Of a stretch of DNA of 64,000 bases, positions 120 to 48,257 are shown in pieces. How positions within the stretch are numbered: the stretch's first letter is position 1; the number at the start of each line of letters is the position of its first letter. Source of the stretch: Eledone cirrhosa (taxonomy: Eukaryota). The stretch lies in the NCBI GenBank assembly GCA_964016885.1, contig OZ024741.1:356624001-356688000 (forward strand), written 5' to 3'. The notes below the pieces were generated by a model. That model had not been told where the DNA came from. It made no database searches and worked only from the letters and a program-made list of their open reading frames with translations. The translations under genes were made by a program, and so were the position numbers.

Positions 120-660
120 ATATAATAATGAAAGTTATTGTATACAGTGCTCAGGTGCACTACAACTCATCAAAGGTACATGCATAGTACAGAGAATAAT
201 TTACAAATGTTAGGAGAGTGAACAGTGTATGAATCATGTTATACACACAGACACATGCATGTGTATGGAGGAGGAATATCAGGTGTAGTGTTGGCGAATT
301 TTAGGAAGCATGGAAATTTTGAAGGATGCAGTGTCCCAACAGCTAACAACCGATGCAGGTAGTTTGTTCCATGCATTAGCAACTCTGAGCATGAAAAAAT
401 GTTTCGAAAAGTCATGGGAGCTGTACTGTTTTCTGACTTTGTAAGCATATCCATGGGTGTTGGACACATGGAATTCAAAAAGGTGCTCAGGGTTGTTGGT
501 TGGAAAGATGGTTAATAATCTTGTGGGTTGCCAGACATCAGAGCTTTAATGTATCCATGCCTAGGGAAGCAAGGCATTCAGAGTATGGTAGATGCCTGAT
601 GGAGGGTATTTGTTTCGTTGCATGTCCCTGAACAGTTTCCAGGAGATCAATATGGTTTTT
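120..660 (-). mobile_element. CR1-type LINE 3' fragment
   Basis: THGYAYKVRK..KHFFMLRVANAWNKLPASVVS is the CR1/L2-group ORF2 C-terminus; near-identical copy at 57425-57770. Confidence 0.75.
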
Positions 661-929
661 GAAAATAAAATTTTGAAGGAGGTTTAGTAATATAACTAAC
701 TTCTTCATTATTAACTAGTTAAATTCATGGTATTTATTATGCTTCGCAGTATAAAGTTACTTCCCTTTACATTCTGAATTCAAATTCCGCCGAGGTTATT
801 TTTATCTTTCATCCTTACGGGATTGATAAAATAAAGCACCAGTATCGTACTGGGGTCGATCTAATTGACTTTCCCTCCCTCAAAATTGTTGGCCATGTGC
901 CTAACTCAGAAACCATTATTAAACTGGTC

Positions 930-1900
930 AAAAGTAGAAACAATTATTAAACTGGTATTTAAAGCATAGCTTAACAAATGTTCTTACATAAAATTCTGAC
1001 AGATTTTTTTTAGATAAATATAAACACTTTAACACTTTCATTGCCATATTTCTTATGAAAGACCCTGCCTATGATTTTCAAATAATTTTGAAAATAATCA
1101 AGAATTTGAAGGGATTTAATCAAATAACTTTCTCATTACTCAGTTGGTGTTTAGAAAATAACATAACAAAGATTCTCACATAGAATTATGTTAGAAGGTA
1201 TTTTTTAGGTGAATATAAACACTTTAATCCTTTAATGACTGGATTAAAAAAAATATATACCGTCTATGCTTTTCAAATCCTTTTTAAAAGGTACTGGTTT
1301 TATTTTGTTATCTGTTGTACATCAATATATTACGTCAACTATATTTTACAAAAAGAAGTTGTATAATGATGAAGAAAAAAATATTTTCTTCTTCTGCCTC
1401 CATGGTACTTTCAAGAAGAAGATGAAGAAGAAGGAGGATCTACACGAAACAATTGAAACTGTAAAAGTTTTGCTTCCACAATATGTTTATTTTATATATG
1501 CCTCTCCCCTTTCTTTATCATATTTCTAATGAAATACACTGCTTATGCTGTTTGAAAATAAGATTTTAAAGCCTGTTGCTGCTCTTCCTACAACTAGCCA
1601 GTGAATCATAAAGCGCTCACTCCAGCAAACTGAAATGAACAGAGTTAGGTGCCTTAAAACCTGTTTGTTACCATATCTCTAATGAAATATACTGCCTATT
1701 ATTTTCAAGTCATTTTGAAAATAATCAAGAATTTGAAGGGATTTAGTAATATAATTAACTTTCTCATTATTAAGCTGGTGTTTGGAAAGCAACTAAACAA
1801 AGGTTCTTACATAAAATTATGATGGAAGATTTTTAGATAACTATAAACATTTTGAAACAAAAAGAGGTTGTTTAAGGTAGTTTTCTATCAAAAGGGTTAA
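930..1900. mobile_element. Cluster of a second TTAA-type MITE family (other copies near 37060-37245 and 43230-43415)
   Basis: Repeated GAAAATAATCAAGAATTTGAAGGGATTTA..CTCATTA; ends AAAGGGTTAA at 1900. Confidence 0.55.
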
Positions 1901-2298
1901 TCTGAGCAAATCAAAATAACACTTGCAAGATCTGAACTAATGATCATGCTCTTGTTATCACTGTTTAGCTCCAGGTCAGCTCTGATCATGCAGACATTTT
2001 ATCAAAGACATTCTAGACATGACAATTCTGCCTTTTTCCTATGTACAGGGAACCCAGCATCACATTATTCAGCATGTTCTTTTCTAAGGTGATAGAATGG
2101 AACTTGATTTGGCAGTTATTTCTAGAAGGTCAGAAAACCTTGTAATAGCTTTTATTCTATTGGCTTATAATTGTCAAGTGACCAATAATATCTTAACCTC
2201 ATAGCCATTGTGACGATATACATTCATTTTGACCTATATAATACATATATTTGGCATGTTTACATGTCTCTCACTCTATATATATATGTTTAAATCTA

Positions 2299-2724
2299 CC
2301 CGATGTATTCAAACATTATTAATCCCGCCGGAGTTGACTTTGCCTTTCATCCTTACGGGGTCGATAAAATAAAGTACCAGTAATGCACTGGGTAATTGCT
2401 GGCCTTGTGCCTAAAGTAGAAACAATTATAGTTATCTCGTTCAGCTAACAGAAAGGAATTGCTTATCCATACAATAAAGACGGATATGAGCTACGTTGAA
2501 TATAATACCCTAAATATACAATACCCAAGTAAAGGATGAGATGGTCATGACTGTAATGGCTTTGATCATAAGTCTGCTGACCTAAAGCTAAACAACAACA
2601 TGCACACTGCACATACATACACACTAACTCCCATACATCAAATATATATAGAAAATGTAAAAGTATTTTCTATTATACATATTAAGTTGTGTGATAAACA
2701 GTCAAAGTATACAATAAATTTATA

Positions 2725-2785
<61 letters not shown>

Positions 2786-3235
2786 ACATATATACAGTAT
2801 AGAGGTAACTGAGACTGCATATATGCATTTATAAATTGAATATATAGACATGTAAACATGCCAAATATACATATTTCCCTGATAAACACTAAATCTGGAT
2901 TAATCTGCATACCTAAATATGGTTGCGCGATCCCCCCCCCCACACACACAGCCCCGGCGGACAGGATGGAGAGGCGTTCCCACGGAGGATGGCAAGGGAC
3001 ACGCGCTGGAAAAGCCACTCCAACTCGCGGGATTCACACCTGCAGCTAGCCAACTCAGCGCCTATGGTGGTGAGTAGGGAGGTAGCCCTAGGGCCAAGGA
3101 CACCAGAAGTCTCCACTGCCAGGGGTACAACTGCAAACCTGTTGGAGAGCGACCGGTATTTGAGGAGCTTGGCCTCCTCAGTCAGACGTGCAGCAGAACC
3201 TGGGTTAGTGGCAGACTGCACCAGGTTGCAGAAAA
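2299..3235 (-). mobile_element. 5'-truncated CRE-like (RLE-type) non-LTR insertion with 13-bp target-site duplication and internal secondary inserts
   Basis: KYRSL..VPLAVETSGVLG..WLFQRVSLAILRGNA; ATGTTTAAATCTA at 2286-2298 and 3236-3248. Confidence 0.7.
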
Positions 3236-3361
3236 ATGTTTAAATCTATATACACACTAGCTACCTCAGTTACTTCTATACTACCTTTATACTGTATATG
3301 TACAGATATAAATTTATCATATACTTTGGTTGCTTAGTACACAACTTAATCATTTCCTTTA

Positions 3362-3742: not shown

Positions 3743-5587
3743 TAATATATGACAAAATCAACTATCAACATGAACACTAATAATATGCAAATTAGTATGT
3801 CCATTTCATGATAGGGTATATAAGCCCCTTGCTTACGTATTTCCTTGTTGTTTAGATGATAACATACGTATTTCCTTGTGGTTGTTTAGATGATATACAT
3901 ACCTTCTGATGAGAACCCAACAAGGTTTGAAAATCAATTAGTGTTTATCAGGGAAATATGTATATTTGGCATGTTTACATGTCTATATATTCAATTTATA
4001 AATGCATATATGCAGTCTCAGTTGCCTCTATATTGTATATATGCATACATATATATATATATATATACACACAGATATAAATTTATTGTATACTTTGACT
4101 GTTTATCACAACTTAATATGTATAATAGAAAATACTTTTACATTTTCTATATATATTTGATGTATGGGAGTTAGTGTGTATGTATGTGCAGTGTGCATGT
4201 TGTTGTTTAGCTTTAGGTCAGCAGACTTATGATCAAAGCCATTACAGTCATGACCATCTCATCCTTTACTTGGGTATTGTATATTTAAAACTATATAATG
4301 TGTCAGCCCTTTTTCAAAACATGAGACTGTAATTTGAAGATGACTTAGATGCTATTACTAGTAGGTCAAGCGACCATGTGGTGGCTCCCTTAGTGGTCTG
4401 TTATGTGTTGTGTGTACACTTGAGTGTGCAAATATTCATACATTTGGTATGTGTTGTGTGTGCATTTGAGTGTGCAAATATTCATACTAGCAGTAAGGCT
4501 TACTGTTTATTTATCACTTTTGTTTATGCTATTTCTTATTATTTGCCCAGCTTTTGCCCTCTAACACACCCATCTGTTTGCTTTTTATTATTATTAGTTT
4601 ATCTTTATAAGCTTAGTAGTTAGAGTGTTCAGCTCAAAATGATAAGATCATGAGGCCAATTCTCGATGGCATGTTGTGTTCTTGAGCAAGAGACTTTATT
4701 TCAAGTTGCTCTGGTCCACTCAGATGGCAAAAATGACTTATACTTATAATTCAAAGAGCCAGGCTTGTCACATACTGTCCCACTGAATCTCCCTGAGAAG
4801 TAAGTTTAAGGTACACATATCAGTGGAATGCTCAGCTTCTTGCATGTTAATTTCATGAGCAAGCAATTCCTTTGTTTGAACAACTGAAACACTCGTCAGA
4901 ACCAATGGGAGTCAATAAGTGGTCGCACAAACTGTTTTCCTTTCAGATGCAGAAAACAGATACCAATCTACCTTTAGACCTTTAGTATAAGTTCTTTAGC
5001 TGTATAAAGTATTGGTAGCAGAAAGGATCATGTTTCATAGTTGAGGAAAGGATCAGATCAGAAGGCATATGTTAAAACATAATAACAATTTTATTTTTTT
5101 CTTCTTTGTATTAATATAAGTACAAGAGAGTGAAGTGCTGCAACATATCTCATAATTAAGTTGAACGATGAAATGTAATTCCTTGCAGAGTTATATATCG
5201 TTATTACTCTTGGCATTAGAAGGCAGGATGAAGAAAATCAGGAACGAGTTACACATAGTACTGTTCTGTAGAAAATCCGGAACGTAACTGCTGGAGAATT
5301 GCTAATTAGGTGCGAAATCGACTGCTGGGTGGAAGTCGTTCTTAGTATTCCTACACCACCAACCCAAAGGGCTAGCGACTGACCAAGCACGACCCAATTA
5401 CTTTGCCATGATAAAGTAGTGCCATTGCTTACTACATAGCCATCCACCAGAAACTCAACACTTTTCATGAGAGAACCAATATTGTTGGAAATCCTCCTTC
5501 TTCCTGCCCAGTTTAAAATTTTATGGCTGCCAGCATCAATGTTGGCATGATGGAAAGTAGATCAAGAGAGATTGCTGAGATGCTGGA

Positions 5588-5878
5588 GGCCAAGGTCATT
5601 GATACAAATTTTTCTGAGTGAGAAACAACAATGAAGTGAGTAGAGTAGGCATACTGTTGGATGACAAATGGACAAAGTAATCGAGATATTTAGAGTATGT
5701 GATAGAATAATTAAGCAAGATGGGGAAAACCCCAGTCAGACTCCTCACAGGCCAAGGTCATTGATACAAATTTTTCTGAGTGGGAAACAACAATGAAGTG
5801 AATAGAGTAGGCATACTGTTGGATGACAAATGGACAAAGTAATCGAGATATTTAGAGTATGTGATAGAATAATTAAGC
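5588..5878. repeat. ~130-bp direct duplication inside the decayed RTE
   Basis: GGCCAAGGTCATTGATACAAA...GATAGAATAATTAAGC at 5588-5716 and 5750-5878. Confidence 0.85.
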
Positions 5879-6287
5879 TTAGACTAATCATGGACAACAT
5901 GTAAGTGGCATTTATTCCTACATATGCATCAAAATGAGGATTGAGCAAAAGAACAGTTTGTAAGAAGCACTCTTGCAGAATACATTGATAAATGATGAAC
6001 CCAGCCAACCACCTAATCACCACCAATCAGAAAAAATATACTAGACAAATAGATTTCATACTCACCAGGAAATGGAATAGACAGATGGTTGTGAATGCTA
6101 AGTCTTTCCTAGTGAAGAATGCACCACACAACATAGATTAGGGATCATTAATATCAGAGCCAAGGTTAGCTTTGCCTTTAATCCTTATGGGGTCAATAAA
6201 ATAAAGTACCAGTAATGCACTGGGATCAAATTAATAGACTTTCCCTCCCACCAAAATTGTTGGCCTTATGCCTAAAATCAGAAACCA

Positions 6288-6475
6288 TGGTGAATTGGCA
6301 GTATCGGTAGAGGGTCGGACGCCATGCTTTCCAGCAGAGTTACATGCCTTTACGGTTTGAGTTCAAATCTCGTCGGGGTTAACTTTGCCTTTCATCCTTA
6401 TGGGGTCGATAAAATAAAGTACCAGTAATGTACTGGGTAATTTCTGGCCTTGTGCCAAAAGTAGAAACAATTATT
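6288..6475 (+). mobile_element. Abundant tRNA-derived SINE with Meta-like central domain (representative copy)
   Basis: TGGCAG..GAGTTCAAATC..AACTTTGCCTTTCATCCTTA.GGGGTCGATAAAATAAAGTACCAG..AGAAACAATTATT; other copies near 1-110, 740-920, 2322-2430, 6165-6287, 20375-20459, 29565-29757, 37405-37585, 49950-50110, 51345-51495, 51853-52030, 53952-54130, 54190-54322, 60858-61060. Confidence 0.85.
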
Positions 6476-6702
6476 AACAGAGGAAAAATGAACTCTGAAA
6501 TAAAAAGCAATCTGGGAAATGTAAAAATGAAAGTTGAAAGTTCTCTCAGTCATATGCAAATTCAAAGAAATACTAGGTGACACCTAGGATGAGAAGTGGG
6601 AGATGGAGACTTCTAAGATAAAAAAAACAACTCAGAGTTTCTAAGAGATAATTTTCCATGAGACACAGATCAGACTTAGATTTCAGCAAGACAGAAAATG
6701 AC

Positions 6703-7227
6703 AGGTGGTAGCGTGTGATAGAATAGATAGAGATGGGATAAGTGGTAGAGTGTGGTAGAATAGATAGAGATGGGATAGGTGGTAGAGTGTGGTAGAATAG
6801 ATAGAGATGGGATAAGTGATAGAGTGTGGTAGAATAGATAGAGATGGGATAAGTGGTAGCGTGTGATAGAATAGATAGAGATGGGATAAGTGGTAGAGTG
6901 TGGTAGAATAGATAGAGATGGGATAAGTGGTAGAGTGTGGTAGAATAGATAGAGATGGGATAGGTGGTAGAGTGTGGTAGAATAGATAGAGATGGGATAG
7001 GTGGTAGAGTGTGATAGGATAGAGATGGGATAAGTGATAGAGTGTGGTAGAATAGATAGGGATGGGATAAGTGGTAGAGTGTGGTAGAATAGATAGAGAT
7101 GGGATAGGTGGTAGCGTGTGGTAGAATAGATAGAGATGGGATAGGTTGTAGAGTGTGGTAGAATAGATAGAGATGGGATAAGTGGTAGAGTGTGGTAGAA
7201 TAGATAGCGATGGGATAAGTGGTAGAA
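6703..7227. repeat. 37-bp satellite, block 1
   Basis: Tandem GATGGGATA(A/G)GTGGTAGAGTGTGGTAGAATAGATAGA. Confidence 0.97.
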
Positions 7228-10190
7228 ATGATATCGGAAGAAACGGACCAGTTGTTGGCCAGAGAGAAAGGTGCCTGACCTCAGTCCTTTCAGACGCGTC
7301 CACCATACAACCTCTTTCGCCATGGCTATTACGCACAGAAACACCGCCTCTGCTTCATCTTTGAAGAGGGGAGGCGGCTTGATCATTACAATAGACTCGG
7401 TGGTCAACCGGATCGGTCCCACCCTTGACAGCAGTTGTTCGACATAGCCCCACAGATCGGCTACGCCCGAGCAGTGTACCAATGCGTGTGCAACGGTTTC
7501 CTCGTCGCACACGCATCTGGGACAGATCTTTTTGGCGGGGTCCCTACCCGGGCGCCCGTGTCTGTAGAGCCTTTCTCGAACGGGTAAAGCCCCTCGGTAG
7601 CACTGCCAGGCCAGGGACTTCTGGAAGTTGTCCATAGGTCCCGGGCTGAATGTCCTACCGAACAGGCTGGCCAGTTCGTCCTCCTCCATGTCTAGGGCTT
7701 CTCCGAGGGCGTCGTCGCACCTGCTGCGTACCAGCCCTCTATAGAATGTTGCGGTGGAGTCTCCACTGATAACCGGATCCGCCTGCCAGAGGGCGGTGAG
7801 CGCCTGGGCACACTCAGTGTGCCAGGCGCCCAGTTTTCTCGGTCTTTGCTTGACCCAGGATTGCAGCTCGGTGAGTGAGACGAGTCTGGGAAAGGTTCGT
7901 CTCACAAACGAGGCCCACACCGGTTGTCCGGTGAGGAATACGTAGAGGTGCCGTAGCCTTAATGCGTGTTTACGCATCATTAGCCACGGCATCCCCAGCC
8001 CTCCTTTCGAAGGGTGTTGACAGCAGATGGATCTCCTCACCATAGGAGCCCGCCTCTTCCAAAGGAATTGGAAGAGCGCGCGCTCCATCTTGGTGAGGGT
8101 TTCCCTTGGGCAGGGCACTACGGTCAGGCGGTAGTAGATGACGGACGCTATGTAGGTGTTCGCCGCCTCCGCCCGACCTTTCAGGGATAGTTTGCAACTG
8201 GCCCACTTCTGGGTCAGTGCAAACACCCTGTTCGTAACCTCCGCCCAGTTTTTCTCCACCTGGAGGTCCGGTCCGAACCAGACCCCGAGCAACTTCACCG
8301 GGCCCTCCGTCCAGCGTCCGACGACGCCATCGGAGGGCATCGGTCTGCCCCTCCACGTGCCGAGTTGCAAACCGATCGACTTGTCCCGGTTCAGCTTAGC
8401 CCCTGTGAACTTTTCGTACTCCTCCAGTAAGGTGCCGACCGCCTCGATTTCGGAGGCCGTCGACACCATTACTGTCACGTCATCGGCGTAGGCCGACACC
8501 GCTTTCCGCAATCCCGGTTCCAAAGGGATGCCCTGCAACAACTCCAACTTCCGCAGTAGTGGCTCGAGAGTCAACACATACAGAAGGGAGGAGAGAGGGC
8601 ACCCTTGTCGGATGGACCGCGCGATTTTGAACGGCTCCGAGAGGTAGCCGTTCACCTTGACCCTAGAGCAGATGCGGCTGCTGTGCATAGCAGTGATCCA
8701 GCACCTGAAAACGGGTCCGAAGCCTGCCGCCGCTAGAACCGCATCCAGGTAACCATGGTCGACCCTATCGAACGCCTTAGATTGATCCAAGTTGATCAGA
8801 GCCCCACCAAAGCCGGGTTCGTTCCCAACCCTCTCTATGATGTATCGCATGAGGTGGAGGTTGTCATGGATGGACCTGGACGGGATAGCGCATGTCTGCG
8901 CATCTCCCACCAGGTTGCCCACGACAAGCGCCAACCTCTTTGCTAGCACCTTGGCCAAAATCTGTAACTCTGTATTTAGCAGTGTTATGGGCCTGAAGTT
9001 ACTTATTTCGTCCCCCTTGTTCTCGTCCTTCCTCACTAGCGTGACTACGCCCTTGGTCACAGTACAGGGAATTCTCCCGTTCTGTTGCCAGTTGCAGTAG
9101 ACCGCCTCGAGGAGATCGGGGAACAAGTCCGGCATAGCTAGATATAATTCGTAAGGAAGACCATCGAGACCCGGGGATTTGCGTTTGCCGCATTGGCTCA
9201 GCACGTGCTCTATCTCAGCGGCCGAAATCGGCTCCTCGCAGGACTTCGCCTCCCTGTCCGAGAGGCGCGGCGGGCCGTCGAGGTATGGACCGAAGTCCAC
9301 GTTCCCAACCGGCTCCCCGCCCCTCCCGAACAGTCGGGCAAAGTGCCTTTGAAAGGCCTCACACATCTGCTTAGGCTCAAGAATCGCCCGTCCATCCAGG
9401 TCTCGCAAAGACCGGATGGTGGATTTAGTTCCACTGTTGGCCTCTGTCACGCGGGCCCAGCTAACAGCTTTGGTCCCCTCGTTCCCTAGAGCACGTATTT
9501 TACTTCGGACAACGCAGCCTTCGTGCTTCGCGTCGAAAAACTGGCTCAAAGCCGTTCTCGACGCTAGCACTCTGGCCACGTCGCCGCTTCTAATTGCCTC
9601 TTCTACTCTATCTATTAGCTCCCTTTCCTTCCTATTCCTATCCGCAGCTAGAACCTTACTAAATTCTATCGAGACTAATCTAATCTCTCTCTTTAGAGAT
9701 ACCCACCACCTGCTGTTGATCGCTCCAGTCAACCGTTCCTTAACTAACGTACTAATCCGATTCCTGTAGGCTCTACTTGCCGGCAAGGACAAGTTGAGCT
9801 TCCAGTAACCGGGGCCCTGTCTATGAGTTCTGTCAAGGTTGACCATGCAGGTCACTAATTTGTGGTCTGAATAGCCAACAATGCGCATTTTTGGACAACT
9901 TAAAAAGTCCTTATCCTTAATTCTAACTAAGAACCTATCTAGGTACGACCTAGATGATCCGCTACGATTTGCCCAAGTCCAGGTTGGCGCAGTCGGAAAA
10001 TATAGTCGATATCTATCGGCCAGGTCAAATCGACCGATTAACCCTTTGAGGCTATTACACCCCTCTCTATTGGGGCAGGCCCCTACGTAGTCCCAGCGTG
10101 CATCTAGGATACCATTCCAGTCTCCCACTAATAGCAAGGGGCGGGACGTCCCTAGAAAAGTCTCCAGACGATGGAAGAAGTCCGGCCGCA
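7228..10190 (-). mobile_element. Tx1-clade (L1 group) non-LTR retrotransposon ORF2, truncated at both ends
   Basis: Stop-free frame: APE endonuclease C-half (LLVGDWN, SYLDRF, SDHK), RT (FRPITLLN, DQSKAFDRV, RQGCPLS, AYADD), C-terminal CPRC..ETVAHALVHC zinc motif; GC-rich relative to host. Confidence 0.88.
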
Positions 10191-11587
10191 TTGGGATAAG
10201 TGGTAGAGTGTGGTAGAATAGATAGAGATGGGATAAGTGGTAGAGTGTGGTAGAATAGATAGAGATGGAATAGGTGGTAGCGTGTGATAGAATAGATAGA
10301 GCTGGGATAGGTGGTAGAGTGTGGTAGAATAGATAGAGATGGGATAAGTGGTAGAGTTTGGTAGAATAGATAGAGATGGGATAGGTGGTAGCGTGTGGTA
10401 GAATAGATAGAGATGGGATAGAGATGGGATAGGTGGTAGCGTGTGATAGAATAGATAGAGATGGGATAGGTGGTAGAGTGTGGTAGAATAGATAGAGATG
10501 GGATAAGTGGTAGTAGAGTGTGGTAGAATAGATAGAGATGGGATAGGTGGTAGAGTGTGATAGAATAGGTAGAGATGGGATAGGTGGTAGAGTGTGGTAG
10601 AATAGATAGAGATGGGATAAGTGGTAGAGTGTGGTAGAATAGATAGAGATGGGATAAGTGGTAGAGTGTGGTAGAATAGATAGAGATGGGATAAGTGGTA
10701 GAGTGTGGTAGAATAGATAGAGATGGGATAAGTGGTAGAGTGTGGTAGAATAGATAGAGATGGGATAGGTGGTAGAGTGTGGTAGAATAGATAGAGATGG
10801 GATAAGTGGTAGAGTGTGGTAGAATAGATAGAGATGGGATAGGTGGTAGAATAGATAGAGATGGGATAGGTGGTAGAGTGTGGTAGAATAGATAGAGATG
10901 GGATAAGTGGTAGAGTGTGGTAGAATAGATAGAGATGGGATAAGTGGTAGAGTGTGGTAGAATAGATAGAGATGGGATAGGTGGTAGAGTGTGGTAGAAT
11001 AGATAGAGATGGGATAGGTGGTAGAGTGTGATAGAATAGATAGAGATGGGATAAGTGATAGAGTGTGGTAGAATAGATAGGGATGGGATAAGTGGTAGAG
11101 TGTGGTAGAATAGATAGAGATGGGATAGGTGGTAGAGTGTGGTAGAATAGATAGAGATGGGATAAGTGGTAGAGTGTGGTAGAATAGATAGAGATGGGAT
11201 AGGTGGTAGAATAGATAGAGATGGGATAGGTGGTAGAGTGTGGTAGAATAGATAGAGATGGGATAAGTGGTAGAGTGTGGTAGAATAGATAGAGATGGGA
11301 TAAGTGGTAGAGTGTGGTAGAATAGATAGAGATGGGATAGGTGGTAGAGTGTGGTAGAATAGATAGAGATGGGATAGGTGGTAGAGTGTGATAGAATAGA
11401 TAGAGATGGGATAAGTGATAGAGTGTGGTAGAATAGATAGGGATGGGATAAGTGGTAGAGTGTGGTAGAATAGATAGGGATGGGATAAGTGGTAGAGTGT
11501 GGTAGAATAGATAGAGATGGGATAGGTGGTAGCGTGTGGTAGAATAGATAGAGATGGGATAGGTTGTAGAGTGTGGTAGAATAGATA
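10191..11587. repeat. 37-bp satellite, block 2, with a 360-bp higher-order repeat
   Basis: Same monomer; 10801-11100 recurs at 11161-11460 (period 360 = 9x37 plus one 27-bp variant). Confidence 0.97.
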
Positions 11588-12428
11588 TATTTCTTTTATT
11601 TGCCACTAGGGCATCAAAAGTGGGACAAGTACAAAGGGGGGAGTTTACACAAAAAGGCGTCCTCAATAAGGAGGAGGCAATAACAAAATATAAAAATAAA
11701 ATAAGATATAACAAAAAATAAAATTTTTAACAAAATCCTCAATAGAGAGGAGGCGCCTTGGGGGGTCGCACACACCCCCGAAAAAAGTGTGCAACCCTTC
11801 TCCTCAGGAGCACAGAGAAGGGGTGCTCCCTTGGTCTTTCATCTTCCTCACCTATAGTCTGATGTAGAGTGAAGGCCCATTCACACGGGCCATTCTCGCC
11901 ACTTTCACCCATCTTTCATAGAAACGGCTGGGGTGCAGCACCTCTCTCTCCATCCTGATCCTTCTTCCGAAATGATATCGGAAGAAACGGACCAGTTGTT
12001 GGCCAGAGAGAAAGGTGCCCGACCTCAGTCCTTTCAGACGCGTCCACCATACAACCTCTTTCGCCATGGCTATTACGCACAGAAACACCGCCTCTGCTTC
12101 ATCTTTGAAGGGGGGAGGCGGCTTGATCATTACAATAGACTCGGTGGTCAACCGGATCGGTCCCACCCTTGACAGCAGTTGTTCGACATAGCCCCACAGA
12201 TCGGCTACGCCCGAGCAGTGTACTAATGCGTGTGCAACGGTTTCCTCGTCGCACACGCATCTGGGACAGATCTTTTTGGCGGGGTCCCTACCCGGGCGCC
12301 CGTGTCTGTAGAGCCTTTCTCGAACGGGTAAAGCCCCTCGGTAGCACTGCCAGGCCAGGGACTTCTGGAAGTTGTCCATAGGTCCCGGGCTGAATGTCCT
12401 ACCGAAAAGGCTGGCCAGTTCGTCCTCC
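11588..12428 (-). mobile_element. Second copy of the same Tx1-like element: 5'-truncated, with ORF2 stop and 3'UTR
   Basis: About 4 differences over about 460 bp shared with 7225-7684; ORF stop at 11852; 3'UTR ends AATAAAAGAAATA. Confidence 0.9.
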
Positions 12429-15400
12429 ATGGGATAAGTGGTAGAGTGTGGTAGAATAGATAGCGATGGGATAAGTGGTAGAGTGTGGTAGAATAGATAG
12501 AGATGGGATAGGTGGTAGAGTGTGATAGAATAGATAGAGATGGGATAAGTGGTAGAATAGATAGAGATGGGATAGGTGGTAGAGTGTGATAGAATAGATA
12601 GAGATGGGATAAGTGGTAGAGTGTGGTAGAATAGATAGAGATGGGATAGGTTGTAGAGTGTGGTAGAATAGATAGAGATGGGATAAGTGGTAGAGTGTGG
12701 TAGAATAGATAGAGATGGGATAGGTGGTAGAGTGTGGTAGAATAGATAGAGATGGGATAGGTGGTAGAGTTTGGTAGAATAGATAGAGATGGGATAAGTG
12801 GTAGAGTTTGGTAGAATAGATAGAAATGGGATAGGTGGTAGAGTGTGGTAGAATAGATAGAGATGGGATAAGTGATAGAGTGTGGTAGAATAGATAGAGA
12901 TGGGATAGGTGGCAGAGTGTGGTAGAATAGATAGAGATGGGATAGGTGGTAGAGTGTGGTAGAATAGATAGAGATGGGATAAGTGGTAGAGTGTGGTCGA
13001 ATAGATAGAGATGGGATGAGTGATAGAGTGTGGTAGAATAGATAGAGATGGGATAGGTGGTAGAGTTTGGTAGAATAGAGATGGGATAAGTGGTAGCGTG
13101 TGGTAGAATAGATAGAGATGGGATAAGTGATAGAGTGTGGTAGAATAGATAGAGGTGGGATAGGTTGTAGAGTGTGGTAGAATAGATAGAGATGGGATAA
13201 GTGGTAGAGTGTGATAGAATAGATAGAGATGGGATAAGTGGTAGAGTGTGGTAGAATAGATAGAGATGGGATAAGTGGTAGAGTGTGGTAGAATAGATAG
13301 AGATGGAATAGGTGGTAGCGTGTGATAGAATAGATAGAGCTGGGATAGGTGGTAGAGTGTGGTAGAATAGATAGCGATGGGATAAGTGGTAGAGTTTGGT
13401 AGAATAGATAGAGATGGGATAGGTGGTAGCGTGTGGTAGAATAGATAGAGATGGGATAGGTGGTAGAATAGATAGAGATGGGATAGGTGGTAGCGTGTGA
13501 TAGAATAGATAGAGATGGGATAGGTGGTAGAGTGTGGTAGAATAGATAGAGATGGGATAGGTGGTAGAATAGATAGAGATGGGATAGGTGGTAGCGTGTG
13601 ATAGAATAGATAGAGCTGGGATAGGTGGTAGAGTGTGGTAGAATAGATAGCGATGGGATAAGTGGTAGAGTTTGGTAGAATAGATAGAGATGGGATAGGT
13701 GGTAGCGTGTGGTAGAATAGATAGAGATGGGATAGGTGGTAGAATAGATAGAGATGGGATAGGTGGTAGCGTGTGATAGAATAGATAGAGATGGGATAGG
13801 TGGTAGAGTGTGGTAGAATAGATAGAGATGGGATAAGTGGTAGAGTGTGGTAGAATAGATAGAGATGGGATAGGTGGTAGCGTGTGGTAGAATAGATAGA
13901 GATGGGATAGGTGGTAGAGTGTGGTAGAATAGATAGAGATGGGATAAGTGGTAGAGTGTGGTAGAATAGATAGAGATGGGATAGGTGGTAGCGTGTGGTA
14001 GAATAGATAGAGATGGGATAAGTGGTAGAGTGTGGTAGAATAGATAGAGATGGGATAAGTGGTAGAGTGTGGTAGAATAGATAGAGATGGGATAAGTGGT
14101 AGAGTGTGGTAGAATAGATAGAGATGGAATAGGTGGTAGCGTGTGATAGAATAGATAGAGATGGGATAGGTGGTAGAGTGTGGTAGAATAGATAGAGATG
14201 GGATAAGTGGTAGAGTTTGGTAGAATAGATAGAGATGGGATAGGTGGTAGCGTGTGGTAGAATAGATAGAGATGGGATAGGTGGTAGAATAGATAGAGAT
14301 GGGAAAGGTGGTAGCGTGTGATAGAATAGATAGAGATGGGATAGGTGGTAGAGTGTGGTAGAATAGATAGAGATGGGATAGGTGGTAGAGTGTGGTAGAA
14401 TAGATAGAGATGGGATAAGTGGTAGAGTGTTGTAGAATAGATAGAGATGGGATAAGTGGTAGAGTGTGGTAGAATAGATAGAGATGGGATAAGTGGTAGT
14501 AGAGTGTGGTAGAATAGATAGAGATGGGATAAGTGGTAGAGTGTGGTAGAATAGATAGAGATGGGATAGGTGGTAGTGTGTGGTAGAATAGATAGAGATG
14601 GGATAGGTGGTAGAGTGTGGTAGAATAGATAGAGATGGGATAAGTGGTAGAGTGTGGTAGAATAGATAGAGATGGGATAGGTGGTAGCGTGTGATAGAAT
14701 AGATAAAGATGGGATAGGTGGTAGAGTGTGGTAGAATAGATAGCGATGGGATAAGTGGTAGAGTTTGGTAGAATAGATAGAGATGGGATAGGTGGTAGAA
14801 TAGATAGAGATGGGATAGGTGGTAGCGTGTGATAGAATAGATAGAGATGGGATAGGTGGTAGCATGTGATAGAATAGATAGAGATGGGATAGGTGGTAGA
14901 GTGTGGTAGAATAGATAGAGATGGGATAAGTGGTAGTAGAGTGTGGTAGAATAGATAGAGATGGGATAAGTGGTAGAGTGTGGTAGAATAGATAGAGATG
15001 GGATAGGTGGTAGCGTGTGGTAGAATAGATAGAGATGGGATAGGTGGTAGAGTGTGGTAGAATAGATAGAGATGGGATAAGTGGTAGAGTGTGGTAGAAT
15101 AGATAGAGATGGGATAGGTGGTAGCGTGTGGTAGAATAGATAGAGATGGGATAGGTGGTAGCGTGTGGTAGAATAGATAGAGATGGGATAGGTGGTAGAG
15201 TGTGGTAGAATAGATAGAGATGGGATAAGTGGTAGAGTGTGGTAGAATAGATAGAGATGGGATAAGTGGTAGAGTGTGGTAGAATAGATAGAGATGGGAT
15301 AAGTGGTAGAGTGTGGTAGAATAGATAGAGATGGGATAAGTGGTAGTAGAGTGTGGTAGAATAGATAGAGATGGGATAAGTGGTAGAGTGTGGTAGAATA

Positions 15401-18400
15401 GATAGAGATGGAATAGGTGGTAGCGTGTGATAGAATAGATAGAGATGGGATAGGTGGTAGAGTGTGGTAGAATAGATAGAGATGGGATAAGTGGTAGAGT
15501 TTGGTAGAATAGATAGAGATGGGATAGGTGGTAGCGTGTGGTAGAATAGATAGAGATGGGATAGGTGGTAGAATAGATAGAGATGGGAAAGGTGGTAGCG
15601 TGTGATAGAATAGATAGAGATGGGATAGGTGGTAGAGTGTGGTAGAATAGATAGAGATGGGATAGGTGGTAGAGTGTGGTAGAATAGATAGAGATGGGAT
15701 AAGTGGTAGAGTGTGGTAGAATAGATAGAGATGGGATAAGTGGTAGAGTGTGGTAGAATAGATAGAGATGGGATAAGTGGTAGTAGAGTGTGGTAGAATA
15801 GATAGAGATGGGATAAGTGGTAGAGTGTGGTAGAATAGATAGAGATGGGATAGGTGGTAGCGTGTGGTAGAATAGATAGAGATGGGATAGGTGGTAGAGT
15901 GTGGTAGAATAGATAGAGATGGGATAAGTGGTAGAGTGTGGTAGAATAGATAGAGATGGGATAGGTGGTAGCGTGTGATAGAATAGATAGAGATGGGATA
16001 GGTGGTAGAGTGTGGTAGAATAGATAGCGATGGGATAAGTGGTAGAGTTTGGTAGAATAGATAGAGATGGGATAGGTGGTAGCGTGTGGTAGAATAGATA
16101 GAGATGGGATAGGTGGTAGAATAGATAGAGATGGGATAGGTGGTAGCGTGTGATAGAATAGATAGAGATGGGATAGGTGGTAGAGTGTGGTAGAATAGAT
16201 AGAGATGGGATAAGTGGTAGTAGAGTGTGGTAGAATAGATAGAGATGGGATAAGTGGTAGAGTGTGGTAGAATAGATAGAGATGGGATAGGTGGTAGCGT
16301 GTGGTAGAATAGATAGAGATGGGATAGGTGGTAGAGTGTGGTAGAATAGATAGAGATGGGATAAGTGGTAGAGTGTGGTAGAATAGATAGAGATGGGATA
16401 GGTGGTAGCGTGTGGTAGAATAGATAGAGATGGGATAGGTGGTAGCGTGTGGTAGAATAGATAGAGATGGGATAGGTGGTAGAGTGTGGTAGAATAGATA
16501 GAGATGGGATAAGTGGTAGAGTGTGGTAGAATAGATAGAGATGGGATAAGTGGTAGAGTGTGGTAGAATAGATAGAGATGGGATAAGTGGTAGAGTGTGG
16601 TAGAATAGATAGAGATGGGATAAGTGGTAGTAGAGTGTGGTAGAATAGATAGAGATGGGATAAGTGGTAGAGTGTGGTAGAATAGATAGAGATGGGATAG
16701 GTGGTAGCGTGTGGTAGAATAGATAGAGATGGGATAAGTGGTAGAGTGTGGTAGAATAGATAGAGATGGGATAAGTGGTAGTAGAGTGTGGTAGAATAGA
16801 TAGAGATGGGATAAGTGGTAGAGTGTGGTAGAATAGATAGAGATGGGATAGGTGGTAGCGTGTGGTAGAATAGATAGAGATGGGATAAGTGGTAGAGTGT
16901 GGTAGAATAGATAGAGATGGGATAGGTGGTAGCGTGTGATAGAATAGATAGAGATGGGATAGGTGGTAGAGTGTGGTAGAATAGATAGAGATGGGATAGG
17001 TGGTAGAGTGTGGTAGAATAGATAGAGATGGGATAAGTGGTAGAGTGTGGTAGAATAGATAGAGATGGGATAGGTGGTAGCGTGTGATAGAATAGATAGA
17101 GATGGGATAGGTGGTAGAGTGTGGTAGAATAGATAGAGATGGGATAGGTGGTAGAGTGTGGTAGAATAGATAGAGATGGGATAAGTGGTAGAGTGTGGTA
17201 GAATAGATAGAGATGGGATAAGTGGTAGAATAGATAGAGATGGGATAAGTGGTAGTAGAGTGTGGTAGAATAGATAGAGATGGGATAAGTGGTAGAGTGT
17301 GGTAGAATAGATAGAGATGGGATAGGTGGTAGCGTGTGGTAGAATAGATAGAGATGGGATAGGTGGTAGAGTGTGGTAGAATAGATAGAGATGGGATAAG
17401 TGGTAGAGTGTGGTAGAATAGATAGAGATGGGATAGGTGGTAGCGTGTGATAGAATAGATAGAGATGGGATAGGTGGTAGAGTGTGGTAGAATAGATAGA
17501 GATGGGATAAGTGGTAGAGTTTGGTAGAATAGATAGAGATGGGATAGGTGGTAGCGTGTGGTAGAATAGATAGAGATGGGATAAGTGGTAGAGTGTGGTA
17601 GAATAGATAGAGATGGGATAGGTTGTAGAGTGTGGTAGAATAGATAGAGATGGGATAGGTGGTAGAGTGTGGTAGAATAGATAGAGATGGGATAGGTGGT
17701 AGCGTGTGATAGAATAGATAGAGATGGGATAGGTTGTAGAGTGTGATAGAATAGATAGAGATGGGATAGGTGGTAGAGTGTGGTAGAATAGATAGAGATG
17801 GGATAAGTGGTAGAGTGTGGTAGAATAGATAGAGATGGAATAGGTGGTAGCGTGTGATAGAATAGATAGAGATGGGATAAGTGGTAGAGTGTGATAGAAT
17901 AGATAGAGATGGGATAAGTGGTAGAATGTGGTAGAATAGATAGAGATGGGATAAGTGGTAGAGTGTGGTAGAATAGATAGAGATGTGATAGGTTGTAGAG
18001 TGTGGTAAAATAGATAGAGATGGGATAGGTGGTAGAGTGTGGTAGAATAGATAGAGATGGGATAAGTGGTAGAGTGTGGTAGAATAGATAGAGATGGGAT
18101 AAGTGGTAGAGTGTGGTAGAATAGATAGAGATGGGATAAGTGGTAGAGTGTGGTAGAATAGATAGAGATGTGATAGGTTGTAGAGTGTGGTAAAATAGAT
18201 AGAGATGGGATAGGTTGTAGAGTGTGGTAGAATAGATAGAGATGGGATAAGTGGTAGAGTGTGGTAGAATAGATAGAGATGGGATAAGTGGTAGAGTGTG
18301 GTAGAATAGATAGAGATGGGATAAGTGGTAGAGTGTGGTAGAATAGATAGAGATGGGATAGGTGGTAGCGTGTGATAGAATAGATAGAGATGGGATAGGT

Positions 18401-19283
18401 GGTAGAGTGTGGTAGAATAGGTAGAGATGGGATAAGTGGTAGAGTGTGGTAGAATAGATAGAGATGGGAGAGGTTGTAGAGTGTGGTAGAATAGATAGAG
18501 ATGGGATAAGTGGTAGAGTGTGGTAGAATAGATAGAGATGGGATAAGTGGTAGAGTGTCGTAGAATAGATAGAGATGGGATAAGTGGTAGATTGTGGTAG
18601 AATAGATAGAGGTGGGATAGGTGGTAGCGTGTGGTAGAATAGATAGAGATGGGATAGGTGGTAGCGTGTGGTAGAATAGATAGAGATGGGATAAGTGGTA
18701 GAGTGTGGTAGAATAGATAGAGATGGGAGAGGTTGTAGAGTGTGGTAGAATAGATAGAGATGGGATAAGTGGTAGAGTGTGGTAGAATAGATAGAGATGG
18801 GATAAGTGGTAGAGTGTGGTAGAATAGATAGAGGTGGGATAGGTTGTAGAGTGTGGTAGAATAGATAGAGGTGGGATAGGTGGTAGCGTGTGGTAGAATA
18901 GATAGAGATGGGATAGGTGGTAGCGTGTGGTAGAATAGATAGAGATGGGATAAGTGGTAGAGTGTGGTAGAATAGATAGAGATGGGAGAGGTTGTAGAGT
19001 GTGGTAGAATAGATAGAGATGGGATAAGTGGTAGAGTGTGGTAGAATAGATAGAGATGGGATAAGTGGTAGAGTGTGGTAGAATAGATAGAGGTGGGATA
19101 GGTTGTAGAGTGTGATAGAGTAGATAGAGGTGGGATAAGTGGTAGAGTGTGGTAGAATAGATAGAGATGGGATAGGTTGTAGAGTGTGATAGAGTAGATA
19201 GAGGTGGGATAGGTGGTGGAATAGATAGATATGTGGTAGAGTGCGGTAGAATAGATAGCTATATGGTAGAATAGATAGAGATA
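12429..19283. repeat. 37-bp satellite, block 3 (about 6.9 kb)
   Basis: Same monomer with 27-bp and 40-bp variants; degenerates at the right end. Confidence 0.97.
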
Positions 19284-20459
19284 TAAGAACTAAGAGACAA
19301 GCCTTGGAAAAGTGGAAGAAATGAAAGCAAAGAACATCAAATAACTAGATGAGAAAGTAGGGAAGTGAAATGAAAGAGATTTGCATATATGTATTCTGCA
19401 TTGTGATAAGAGGCATACAGTGTTCTGTGTGTGCAGCATAGCAGCAGCTCTCAATAACACTGAGCAGCAAGAAGCCATTGAAATGTTATTATGAGAAATT
19501 ATTGAATGGGGAGAATGCAGTAAGAGAATACTTACTCTAAGTAGAACCAATAATTTGTTAGCTATTCTGTTGAAGTTATGGAGGCCAGGAAATAACTGCT
19601 GGACCATTAAGGTTTGTCACTAAGTTGAATATATCTGGCAAAGTAGGCCAAGCACTAGCCACTCATAATACAATGAGCACTAAGTGCCATACCCAATGAT
19701 TGGTATAACAATATCATTGTCAATTGCTACAAGGGTTTAGAAGATGTAGCTACAGAGGCATTAAATTGATGTATCAGTTTATGAATGTTAGTGAAAGTGT
19801 TGTCATACAACTGATTAGGAAGAGTATTAGATTAGGTGCATTTTATCTTCTTGGTGAAACAACTACAAGAGAAGTACTAGGCTGGAAGTAAGCTACTCTA
19901 CCTAACATTTATCGAACTTGAGAAGGCCTTTGACAAAGTTACATAATCTGTGGTCTGGTGGTCATTAAGAAAATTAAGGGTAGACAAATTGCTTGAGAGA
20001 TCCATACAGACCATATTTAATGGTACCATCAGCAAAGCGAGAGTTAACAATGAGTTTAGCAAGGAATTTAGAGTACAGACTATTATACATCAGGGCTCAG
20101 TTAATTCTCATGACTAAGTCAATCAAAGATTTAGAGAGGACATTCGAAACTGTGATGCAAAACCTACAAAAGATGAGTAAAAAATAGAGTGTCAGGAGAA
20201 AAACCACTCATAGAAATATATTTATTTGTATGAGGAACAATACATGCAGTGTATTAGGTGTGGAAACATCTAATACACTTAAGGATTAAGGGAACATCAT
20301 ATAACCTGGAGCAGTACATGTAGTGTATAAGGTGTGGAAACAAACAGCCTAGAAAAACACCATAACCTGGAATAATTTATTTTATCAACCGCATAAGGAT
20401 GAAAGGCAAAGTTAACCTCGGCAGGATTTGAACTCAGAACGTAAAGGGCCGTAACTCTA

Positions 20460-29859: not shown

Positions 29860-30010
29860 ACCAAGACACAGCATTACTGCAGATGATAGCGGGGCTAAGG
29901 CACAGGAATAGCCAAACACCCTCATGAGCATCACCTAATATTTCAACATGGTAAACTGCCAGTGATGACAAAAAGTTCATTGTCAGAAGCCCAACCCCAC
30001 AAAACGTCAC
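29860..30010 (-). mobile_element. Old CRE-like 3' remnant (related remnant on + at 61650-61830)
   Basis: NFLSSLA..GDAHEGVWLF..AIICSNA here; KFLSSLA..DDAREGAWLFQ..ITCGNA at 61650-61830. Confidence 0.5.
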
Positions 30011-30090
30011 ATGATTTCTTATTTTGGAGATATCAATTGACATTGTGCTTTTTTCTTTTTCTTTTCAGCTTTAATTTTAATATTTTAGTC

Positions 30091-33000
30091 ATGGGTGGAA
30101 TGAAGAGAACACCAAAACCAAATAAGAAAATGACTAAAGAAGTAAAAGAAGTATCTACTAAAACGAAGTTATATAAAGATACTGAACATGAGAAACTTTC
30201 CCAAAGGCTACTTTTAAAACCAGAAGAAAGTTTTAATGATTCTAATGATTTTAAAACACCTGAGAGAAAGAGTAATACATGTAGATCTAGACTCCGTAAT
30301 CAATCTGATTGTATAAAAATTAATGAACCATGGAGAAATGAAGCTGCATTGATAAAAAAATATACAAAACAAAGCATCACATCCGTAGAGTCTATAACGA
30401 AAATGCATTCCGAAACACCCAGGAAAAGTACAAGAAAATCTTCTCAATCCCAAAATGAAAATTCTCCTTTGAAAAATGCTACATCATCACCTCATAAATC
30501 TGACAAAAGGAATTTATCTCAGACAAATATCATAAAACCTATCAAGTCTTCCAGTAAACAACATAAAAATAACAAAAGCAATATAAATTCCAAACAAAAG
30601 ACTTCTGATTCTGATAAGAAATCTGTTGAGAAAACATTGTTATGTAGTCAACAAGCTTCCAAGTTTAGATCGCCTAAAAGTCAAAATTTGTCTGGATCAA
30701 TACAGTATTCGGGTAGTAGTTCTTCTTTGTCTGGAAAGATAACAGCTGGAAGTCCATGTGAGTCCTCAAAATTTATTAAAGATGAAAATTCTTCTTGTAC
30801 TTCAGAGGAAGAATTTGAAACATCAAGTAACTGTGGAACTTATTTGCGAAAAAGAAGAAAAATCTGTTATAAATTTAATGAGAAAGATTCTGAAACACAT
30901 GTTCCCACTGTTTTATCTTCCCATATTCCTACTATTACATCTTCACATGTTCCCTCTGTTATGTCTTCACATATTCCCTCTGTTACATCTTCACATATTC
31001 CCTCTGTTACATCTTCACAGTTTCTCACTACTACATCTTCACAGATTCCTACTATTACATGTTCACATGCTCCCAGAGTTACATCTTCAAAGTTTCCCAC
31101 TATTACATCTTCACAGTTTCCCACTATTACATCTTCACAGATTCACGCTGTTTTATCTTCACATATTCCCTCTGTTGCATCTTCACATGTTCCTACTGTT
31201 ACATCTTCACATGTCCCTACTATTACATCTTCACATGTTCCCATAGTTACATCTTCACATATTCCTACTGTTACATCTTCATATGTTCCCTCTATTACAT
31301 CTTCACAGATTCCCTCTATTACATCTTCACAGATTCCCACTATTATATCTTCACATGTTTCCACCATTACATTTTCACATATTCCCACAGTGGCATCTTC
31401 ACATATTTCTGTTGAAGCAGAAGTGAATATAGAAACAGGATTCAACCACAAGCAAAATAAACCAAAATCTGACGATTATTTTAATGAGATTCAAATGAGG
31501 AAGTGTCCCACGTGTAAAGATGATTTTCCCAACCTAATATTTAATGAGCATGTGCTACAGTGTCTTAAGGAACAGTTTCAATCATCCACCTATGGGCCTC
31601 TTAACACTAAAACAGGGCACAAGCAAATATCTCAAGATGAACGATTAGCTCAAAAGTTACATGCAGAACTTAATAAAAATGTCCTAATAGATAATGCTTC
31701 TCTAGAATCTGACAAAGTACTATGTTGTATATGTAAAACAGAATTAACTCATTTGAACTCATTACAAAGAACTCAGCATATCAACACATGCCTTGACCAA
31801 TCAGAATCTGCAAAGGCCCATGACACTTCCCCAGAATCTGTTGTAATTTGTCCGATGTGTGGACAGCAATTCAATTCTTTTTCTTTAAGAGAGAATCATT
31901 TCAAAACTTGTACAAGAGATAAATTTGTTGCCCCTAATCAATCCAGCAGGTCGACTACAAACAAAAAGCAGTTGAAAAGTAGAACAACATCCAATTCCAA
32001 AAAGACTCCTGATGACCAACTTCAGCTAGCATTAGCTATGTCTAATTCTCTTCAAGAAGAACAAAACAAACAGGAAGAACAATTAGGCCGATATATTCAG
32101 AATATTAAAAAAAACGTTTTTAAAGAGTTGAAGCATCAGAAAAATAAACAACTTCCATTATTAGTTACATTAACAACTGAAGAACGCCAATCTGTCCATG
32201 CAGAAAGAGTTGCTGGTATTATAAATGAAAATTTTGAAAACGTTCCCTCAACTAAAAGACATAAATATAGCTCATTAGCTTCAACACAACCAACAAATCT
32301 ATGGTTAAAATCTTCACTCACGCAGACAGATTCTTCGAAACTTCCTTTCTATGTGGATTCATTGGTACCCCCCATTAAAATAGATATTGTTAACATGGGA
32401 GATCAATTGAAACATTTATCTAAAAATACTGGAAATGTTATTAGTCAAAATACAACTAATTCTGCTAATGAAGAAGAGAAGCAACAATTAATAGAACCAA
32501 GTCAAACTGCTCTTATCTTAGCTGAGTTAGCAAATGATAACAAAACTCCCACTAATTCATGTCATACTCCTGTTGAACATATATCACCAAATTTTCAGAC
32601 AGAAGCATATAAAGAGAATTCATCAGGTATATTAACATCTTTAAGTACAGATTTTTGTAGATTAGTAAATAATCCTAGTTTTAGTGATATTCAGTTTATG
32701 ACAGCCGAAGGAATTAAAGTTTTTGGACATAAAATAATTCTTCAAGCTAGATGTCCCAATATTTTAAATAGAATTTCTACTCAACTTCTAACACCCACTA
32801 TTAACTTGAGTGAAGTATCTTATGACACATTGTTGGCATTTCTCAAGTACATTTATGCTGGACAGTTAAATATAGATGAAACTCAGGCAAACAGCTTAAA
32901 GATATTATCATGGGAGCTTGCAATACCAGAATTATTTCACGCTTGTGAGAAACTGCTTAAAAAAAGTGTAATTCATAGCCAGCAAAATTCAGGTTTTTGT

Positions 33001-47900: not shown

Positions 47901-48257
47901 AGACGCTTGCCTACGACTAGTCTCGCAGAGGCACCTCTCCATCTCACCTCTTGCACGCAGCACACATCCACTTGCCTTCTCTCCAGCATCTCCGCTATTT
48001 CAGCAGATCTACCTCTGAGAGTGCCAACATTTAGTGTTGCAACTCTGAGATGCGACGTCTTCATATTTTGTTGTTCCTATTTGTTGCTGTGCTGATAAGC
48101 GTTTTGGCATTGATACACTGGTTGGATGCCCTTCCTAACACCAGCGCCACTTTACAGCACGGACTGGGTGCTTTTATTTGTGCCACCAGCACTAGAGAGG
48201 ATGTCTTACTAGACTCAAGGGCCCTCTCTACCCCTCCATTTTACAGCATGGTCATTA

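Follow-up and report, generated by a model that had tools for sequence, protein, structure and literature searches.

The 64,000-nt stretch of the Eledone cirrhosa genome analyzed here (GCA_964016885.1, contig OZ024741.1, positions 356,624,001 to 356,688,000 of the forward strand; in the following termed the window) harbors an array of a 37-bp minisatellite, which is interrupted by two pieces of a long interspersed nuclear element (LINE), referred to as copies A and B, and is flanked by parts of a decayed RTE element (Table 1). A preliminary description of the locus had seen in the two pieces a Tx1-clade element inserted twice at the same place of the repeat unit and had proposed a new target-specific family. 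In the interpretation that we regard as very probably correct, a young 5.7-kb LINE with two open reading frames (ORFs), likely of the Tx1 clade, whose 3' ends adjoin TAGATA or TATATA genome-wide, struck the minisatellite twice and independently by way of a weak motif offered by each unit.

Table 1. Coordinates of the features discussed in the text (window numbering).
Feature	Position	Strand	Remarks
37-bp tandem array, whole	6705-19250		broken up by two minus-strand LINE pieces
Left 37-bp minisatellite block	6705-7226	+	7146-7219 = empty twin of the copy B site
Middle 37-bp minisatellite block	10192-11587	+	final TAGATA motif = insertion motif of copy B
Right 37-bp minisatellite block	12429-19250	+	
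Copy A, internal ORF2 piece, 5'-truncated inside the endonuclease domain	7225-10193	-	RVT_1, zf-RVT, part of Exo_endo_phos
Copy B, 3' fragment of 841 nt, terminus intact	11588-12428	-	AATAAA 7 nt before the end, without poly(A)
Hairpin in the element, 9-bp core stem, 7-nt loop	11959-11989		where the 3' part of copy A breaks off
Decayed RTE, endonuclease side, broken by short repeats	5529-6596	+	left of the array; tblastn residues 13-293, best E 1.5e-9
Decayed RTE, reverse transcriptase side, colinear with the left part	19448-19934	+	right of the array; tblastn residues 426-619, best E 1e-12
Younger RTE copy, frameshifted	44978-48076	-	RVT_1, Exo_endo_phos

Copy A, which is 99.3% identical to the natural full-length copy L048, contains an open frame of 989 aa, which aligns to residues 118-1106 of P0001, the ORF2 product of L048. 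Counted from the 3' end of L048, copy A spans nucleotides 382-3,353 and copy B nucleotides 1-841; the overlap of 458 bp contains four differences (99.1% identity). The two copies of about 99% identity, with one orientation and differing 5' truncation (3,353 vs. 841 nt from the 3' end), were thus correctly recognized at the outset, and the same holds for the intact 3' end joining the array at AGAATAGATA|, which is found for copy B (window 11587/11588), inserted at AATAGATA|. At the 5' side of copy B, the monomer restarts with ATGGG (12429) and zero overlap, whereas copy A runs to 10193 and shares TG with the monomer (10192-10193), the restart being TGGG or GG. The shared 5' join therefore stands only in so far as both joins lie close together, i.e., 1-3 nt apart, but they fall on different bases, and two random joins in a monomer of 37 phases would come this near with a chance of about 8-19% (3/37 to 7/37). 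Copy A is missing its last 381-384 nt and joins the monomer via a GAA overlap at 7225-7227. As its 3' end is lost, its nick position is unreadable, and a repeated insertion at the same position is not demonstrated.

For copy B, the original state of the site can be read from the empty twin. Here, a TTGTAG-variant unit precedes a GCG-variant one. Among 14 uninterrupted TTGTAG units this succession occurs once, and it recurs across copy B. The presence of this empty form to the left of copy A implies that copy B removed 3 bp (GAG) and made no target-site duplication. A 34-bp duplication was considered and rejected on account of the empty twin and of 2 mismatches between the two sides; likewise, none of 83 copies (76 scored, 7 unscored) showed a TCC deletion that, if encoded by the source element, would leave copy B with a 3-bp overlap.

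A DNA search of the genome with the 3' 312 bp of copy B, of a kind that skips common words, gave nothing, and exact patterns were used instead. Close to the 3' end, a 26-mer matches the 3.0-Gb genome exactly at 1,942 places, and for a pattern extending to the 3' terminus the number is 1,959. TA[G/T]ATA lies 2 nt from the terminus in 1,752 of these 1,959 3' ends (89%), while reversed-pattern controls gave 0. For closer inspection 100 copies were read, namely the first listed of the 1,942, all on contig C1, which do not constitute a random sample and comprise some duplicated as well as tandem copies; unless stated otherwise, counts out of 100 below refer to this set. The target side reads ...AGATAGATA|, with A in 99, T in 98, A in 97 and G or T in 81 and 16 copies at the four nearest positions. 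Its end was TAGATAGATA in 66 copies, (TA)4 in eight, a shorter GATA or TATA in 24 and neither class in two, so that GATA or TATA is found at the target-side end of 98. A (TAGA)n/(TA)n microsatellite lies to the left of 78 copies and to the right of 75 (either side, 83; both, 70). The survey of genomic junctions proposed in the preliminary description consequently revealed non-random flanks with a TAGATA| motif at the 3' junction. In contrast, recognition of AGATAGAGATGGG, as suggested there, is not supported, as none of the 100 other copies has AGAATAGATA on the left or TGGG at the 5' join.

The motif is also used without a microsatellite, as minisatellites of 28, 32 and 48 bp were likewise entered at ATATA|. 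In the 48-bp array (L085/L086 and L087; G000:C1, about 108.72-108.83 Mb), two independent insertions share a phase, with an 18-bp duplication at only one of them; the locus comprises a duplicated insertion and an independent full-length copy. The pattern of the window is thus found at a second locus. Altogether, the family is strongly sequence-specific, with (TATC)n/(TA)n as target and TAGATA as its core, and the 37-bp satellite is an incidental host. Of the proposed target-specific family, the sequence specificity accordingly holds, but not the 37-bp satellite as its target.

Apart from the target itself, several features of the insertion landscape were noted. Insertions are clustered on contig C1, with 9 of 99 gaps shorter than 10 kb vs. 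0.6 expected under a uniform distribution, and the left flank is the 5' end of another element in eight of the 100 copies. Sister families with related 3' termini occupy these (TAGA)n runs at an identical register (24 ends) and neighbor, among others, L012, L048, L058, L063, L064, L072, L100 and L106.

Full-length copies measure about 5.72 kb, and 23 of the 100 copies reach a length of 5,680 nt or more. Judging by 374 exact genomic matches to a 24-mer from the 5' end of the main subfamily, hundreds of full-length copies may be present. The full-length copy sought for the family was recovered in the form of L048, with intact ORFs: ORF1 (592 aa, upstream of ORF2) has no Pfam match, although a CX2CX4HX4C knuckle is visible in its sequence, and P0001 (1,145 aa) comprises Exo_endo_phos, RVT_1 and zf-RVT. 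Among solved relatives, human LINE-1 ORF2p matches P0001 best (E 2.5e-48), with R2 far behind. With an apurinic/apyrimidinic endonuclease (APE)-type endonuclease, a reverse transcriptase (RT), a C-terminal zinc finger and a separate ORF1, the element is an L1-group LINE (L1/Tx1). In an RT tree of 26 regions, whose rows held no named Tx1 element and no vertebrate L1, it clusters with an Argonauta protein and unnamed proteins, joined next by ORF2s of turtle and fish (97/97), and is separate from plant L1s; among named relatives, a protein of Argonauta hians is nearest (67% in the RT region). Membership in the Tx1 clade is likely, albeit tentative. Look-ups of protein clusters gave no protein named Tx1, the Atlas returned generic endonuclease/RT clusters only, and two scans of metagenome contigs yielded no relatives with flanks.

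Within the family, L047, L062 and L092 and, at about 87%, also L044, L066, L069 and L104 represent a recombinant subfamily. In the first three, which were profiled, identity to L048 is 95-100% in the 3' 3 kb, 84-88% in the endonuclease region and 64-74% in ORF1 and the 5' untranslated region. All seven copies of the recombinant subfamily lie at TAGATA or TATATA.

How could such an element reach its target? In LINEs, the first, specific nick corresponds to the 3' junction, and the second-strand cleavage of APE-type LINEs is much less specific and can result in duplications or deletions (PMC6895275, in the part available). The last two element bases (read antisense) are TA in 39, TG in 31 and AG in 25 of the 100 copies. 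They track the internal haplotype, as C is present at the first diagnostic site in 29 of 31 TA copies vs. 1 of 47 TG/AG copies, and are consequently inherited with the element, which places the primer end after TAGATA. Judging from the junctions, the endonuclease would likely nick the GA-rich strand right after the motif (TAGATA^GA), and target-primed reverse transcription would then start from this nick. A match of at least 6 bp between left suffix and right prefix is found in 75 of the 100 copies; 62 of these are simple repeat and uninformative, and 10 of the 13 non-simple matches measure 16-21 bp, a length that includes 1-3 bp of overlap, with one duplicated pair among them. The usual outcome is a duplication of 16-21 bp, in place of which copy B, and probably copy A, shows a small deletion. 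Blunt or near-blunt second-strand processing, aided by short ATG/TG overlaps, could have generated the 5' joins, and a later microhomology deletion might have taken the 3' end of copy A together with neighboring repeat units.

A further option, which we consider conceivable but rather doubtful, is that targeting is partly RNA-guided: the transcript would extend beyond the element end into flanking (UAUC)n, this tail would pair with the nicked TAGATA strand, and copying would start exactly at the terminus. Such a pairing of RNA and target fits the position of AATAAA only 7 nt from the end, the lack of an A tail in 99 of the 100 copies and the location of the sole A-tailed copy, L110, in an (ATT)n run, the last association being a single case. 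If this were true, an altered RNA tail would shift the landing site.

The anatomy of copy A could alternatively reflect an endonuclease-independent event, in which copy B is a normal insertion, whereas copy A arose when the repair of an array break took up a piece of element DNA or cDNA. Copy A lacks both terminus and duplication, shows short overlaps at its two ends (GAA, TG), and its 3' part breaks off at a hairpin (-10.4 kcal/mol, z -2.9, equaled by 1 of 200 shuffles). Yet a later deletion accounts for the same anatomy, and copy A has the orientation of copy B, as predicted by motif-directed insertion, with a 5' join resembling that of copy B, so that we regard capture as improbable. The fold of the 3' 273 nt of the element, in turn, did not clearly stand out from shuffles (z -1.6; 12 of 200 as good). 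As a side note, the 5' truncation of L057b coincides with the hairpin at the break of copy A, and that of L075 lies at most 2 nt from the 5' end of copy A; these coincidences may reflect pause sites or chance.

Whether copies A and B go back to one insertion, duplicated and rearranged by unequal exchange within the array, was an objection anticipated in the preliminary description. Duplicated blocks do occur in the array, the left flank of copy A is a twin of the copy B flanks, and the overlap identity of 99.1% would suit such an origin. This left flank, however, represents the empty rather than the filled form of the copy B site. Moreover, at the four sites distinguishing the copies, copy A carries TACC and copy B CGTA. 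Sites 1 and 3 divide the family into two lineages among the 83 genomic copies that are long enough, of which four carry the haplotype of copy B and one that of copy A. Copy B is identical over 841/841 nt to L118, which sits in (TAGA)n. The differing family haplotypes argue against a single rearranged insertion, which appears very improbable, and copies A and B are likely independent insertions from different source lineages.

The minisatellite contains TAGATA once per unit (n = 235 in 8,742 bp of array). As far as exact matches show, it is a single-locus minisatellite, since all genome matches of a 28-mer (148/148) and a 20-mer (177/177) of the unit lie inside the window. Specific targeting of the 37-bp satellite by the family or a sub-lineage via a AGATAGAGATGGG-like site, as could be read from two insertions in an 8.7-kb array with 5' joins 1-3 nt apart and from a second motif register ending at the 5' join, has already been largely refuted and is scarcely credible, as this array exists at one locus, it is joined by one intact 3' end of the family, against a genome-wide 1,959, neither flank recurs in any of the 100 other copies, and copy B is identical to a copy in (TAGA)n. 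Rather, a tandem repeat containing the core can gather insertions at a fixed phase and thereby mimic a satellite-specific element.

Several points weigh against motif-directed, independent insertion of both copies. The site in the window is a weak match, and no more than 7 of the 100 sites score as low or lower. Both 5' joins sit at the end of a second motif register, AATAGATAGAGA^TGGG (11.0 vs. 5.7), and the model leaves this rejoining at the next motif register unexplained, although with two events it is not significant. Both window copies lack the usual duplication of the family, which itself is based on a subset, as 25 of the 100 copies show no suffix/prefix match and the duplications of 62 are unreadable within simple repeats. 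The best full-length matches of copy A (99.3-99.4%) include copies of the B lineage, and copy A may therefore be a mosaic. In favor of the interpretation, rough per-motif scaling gives about 0.19 expected intact insertions in the array vs. one seen, so that no extra preference for the array is needed; this expectation builds on the background of one window.

The array is itself embedded in an older element. The preliminary description had proposed a three-tier nest, in which an RTE seeded a satellite that became a landing pad for the LINE. The nest of RTE, minisatellite and LINE is real, as the array flanks are colinear on both sides with the younger RTE of the window, which served as tblastn reference (46187-48076); the C-terminus of the RTE gave no match to the array flanks. 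A seeding of the monomer by the RTE is plausible. The unit resembles RTE codons at the array edges, but short DNA alignments between array edges and RTE codons did not exceed 300 shuffles (38 vs. a maximum of 42; 45 vs. 45). Elsewhere in the window, an open frame of 2,206 codons with an internal 24-bp tandem repeat (29899-36519, plus strand) may represent an SLX4-type scaffold gene.

Microsatellite-specific LINEs are known from vertebrates, including Kibi in (TC)n and Koshi in (TTC)n of teleosts and the crocodilian Tx1-1_Crp group in (TTCC)n/(TTTC)n (PMC4494074; PMC3812793; both seen here in part). One repeat type in >20% of flanks was used there as mark of such specificity (PMC4494074, available sections), and 83 of our 100 copies lie beside (TAGA)n/(TA)n. 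In cephalopods, 13 recently active L1-Tx1 families were reported for Octopus vulgaris (PMC13282606, in its main text), and the cephalopod annotations of L1-Tx1 (PMC13282606; PMC8967140; available text) describe elements that likewise belong to this broad class and are young and plentiful in octopods. The term "target" is missing from the main text of PMC13282606 and is used once, in a general sense, in the available text of PMC8967140; the repeat libraries and supplements of these studies may include the family. No paper on a GATA/TATC-targeting LINE was found in the literature searched, although Repbase or Fig. 3 and the supplements of PMC4494074 may list one.

In this context, (TATC)n/(TA)n joins the microsatellites known as targets of APE-type LINEs, together with a genome-wide count. 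As the mechanism of microsatellite targeting has been called not well understood (PMC3812793, in the part consulted), about 2,000 young copies, a 6-nt core that can be read and the intact ORFs of L048 make the family a good substrate for separating the share of the endonuclease from that of RNA-target pairing. Like Tx1L of Xenopus, which inserts in Tx1D, and R1Bm, the element combines two ORFs and an APE-RT-zinc finger ORF2 with sequence specificity and a short duplication; the targets of these elements, however, are a transposon and the 28S rDNA, and their specificity was demonstrated in vitro, whereas here it is read from junctions (PMC1919474, available portion). With Kibi, Koshi and Tx1-1_Crp, it shares the nature of an APE-type LINE that enters a microsatellite in a set register and orientation, frequently in tandem stacks, a likeness drawn from insertion behavior as far as the available descriptions extend. 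What sets it apart is an octopod host and the target, (TATC)n/(TA)n around a TAGATA core in place of (TC)n, (TTC)n, (TTCC)n or (TTTC)n; it is therefore not Kibi or Koshi itself, but a family like them in kind with a new simple-repeat target.

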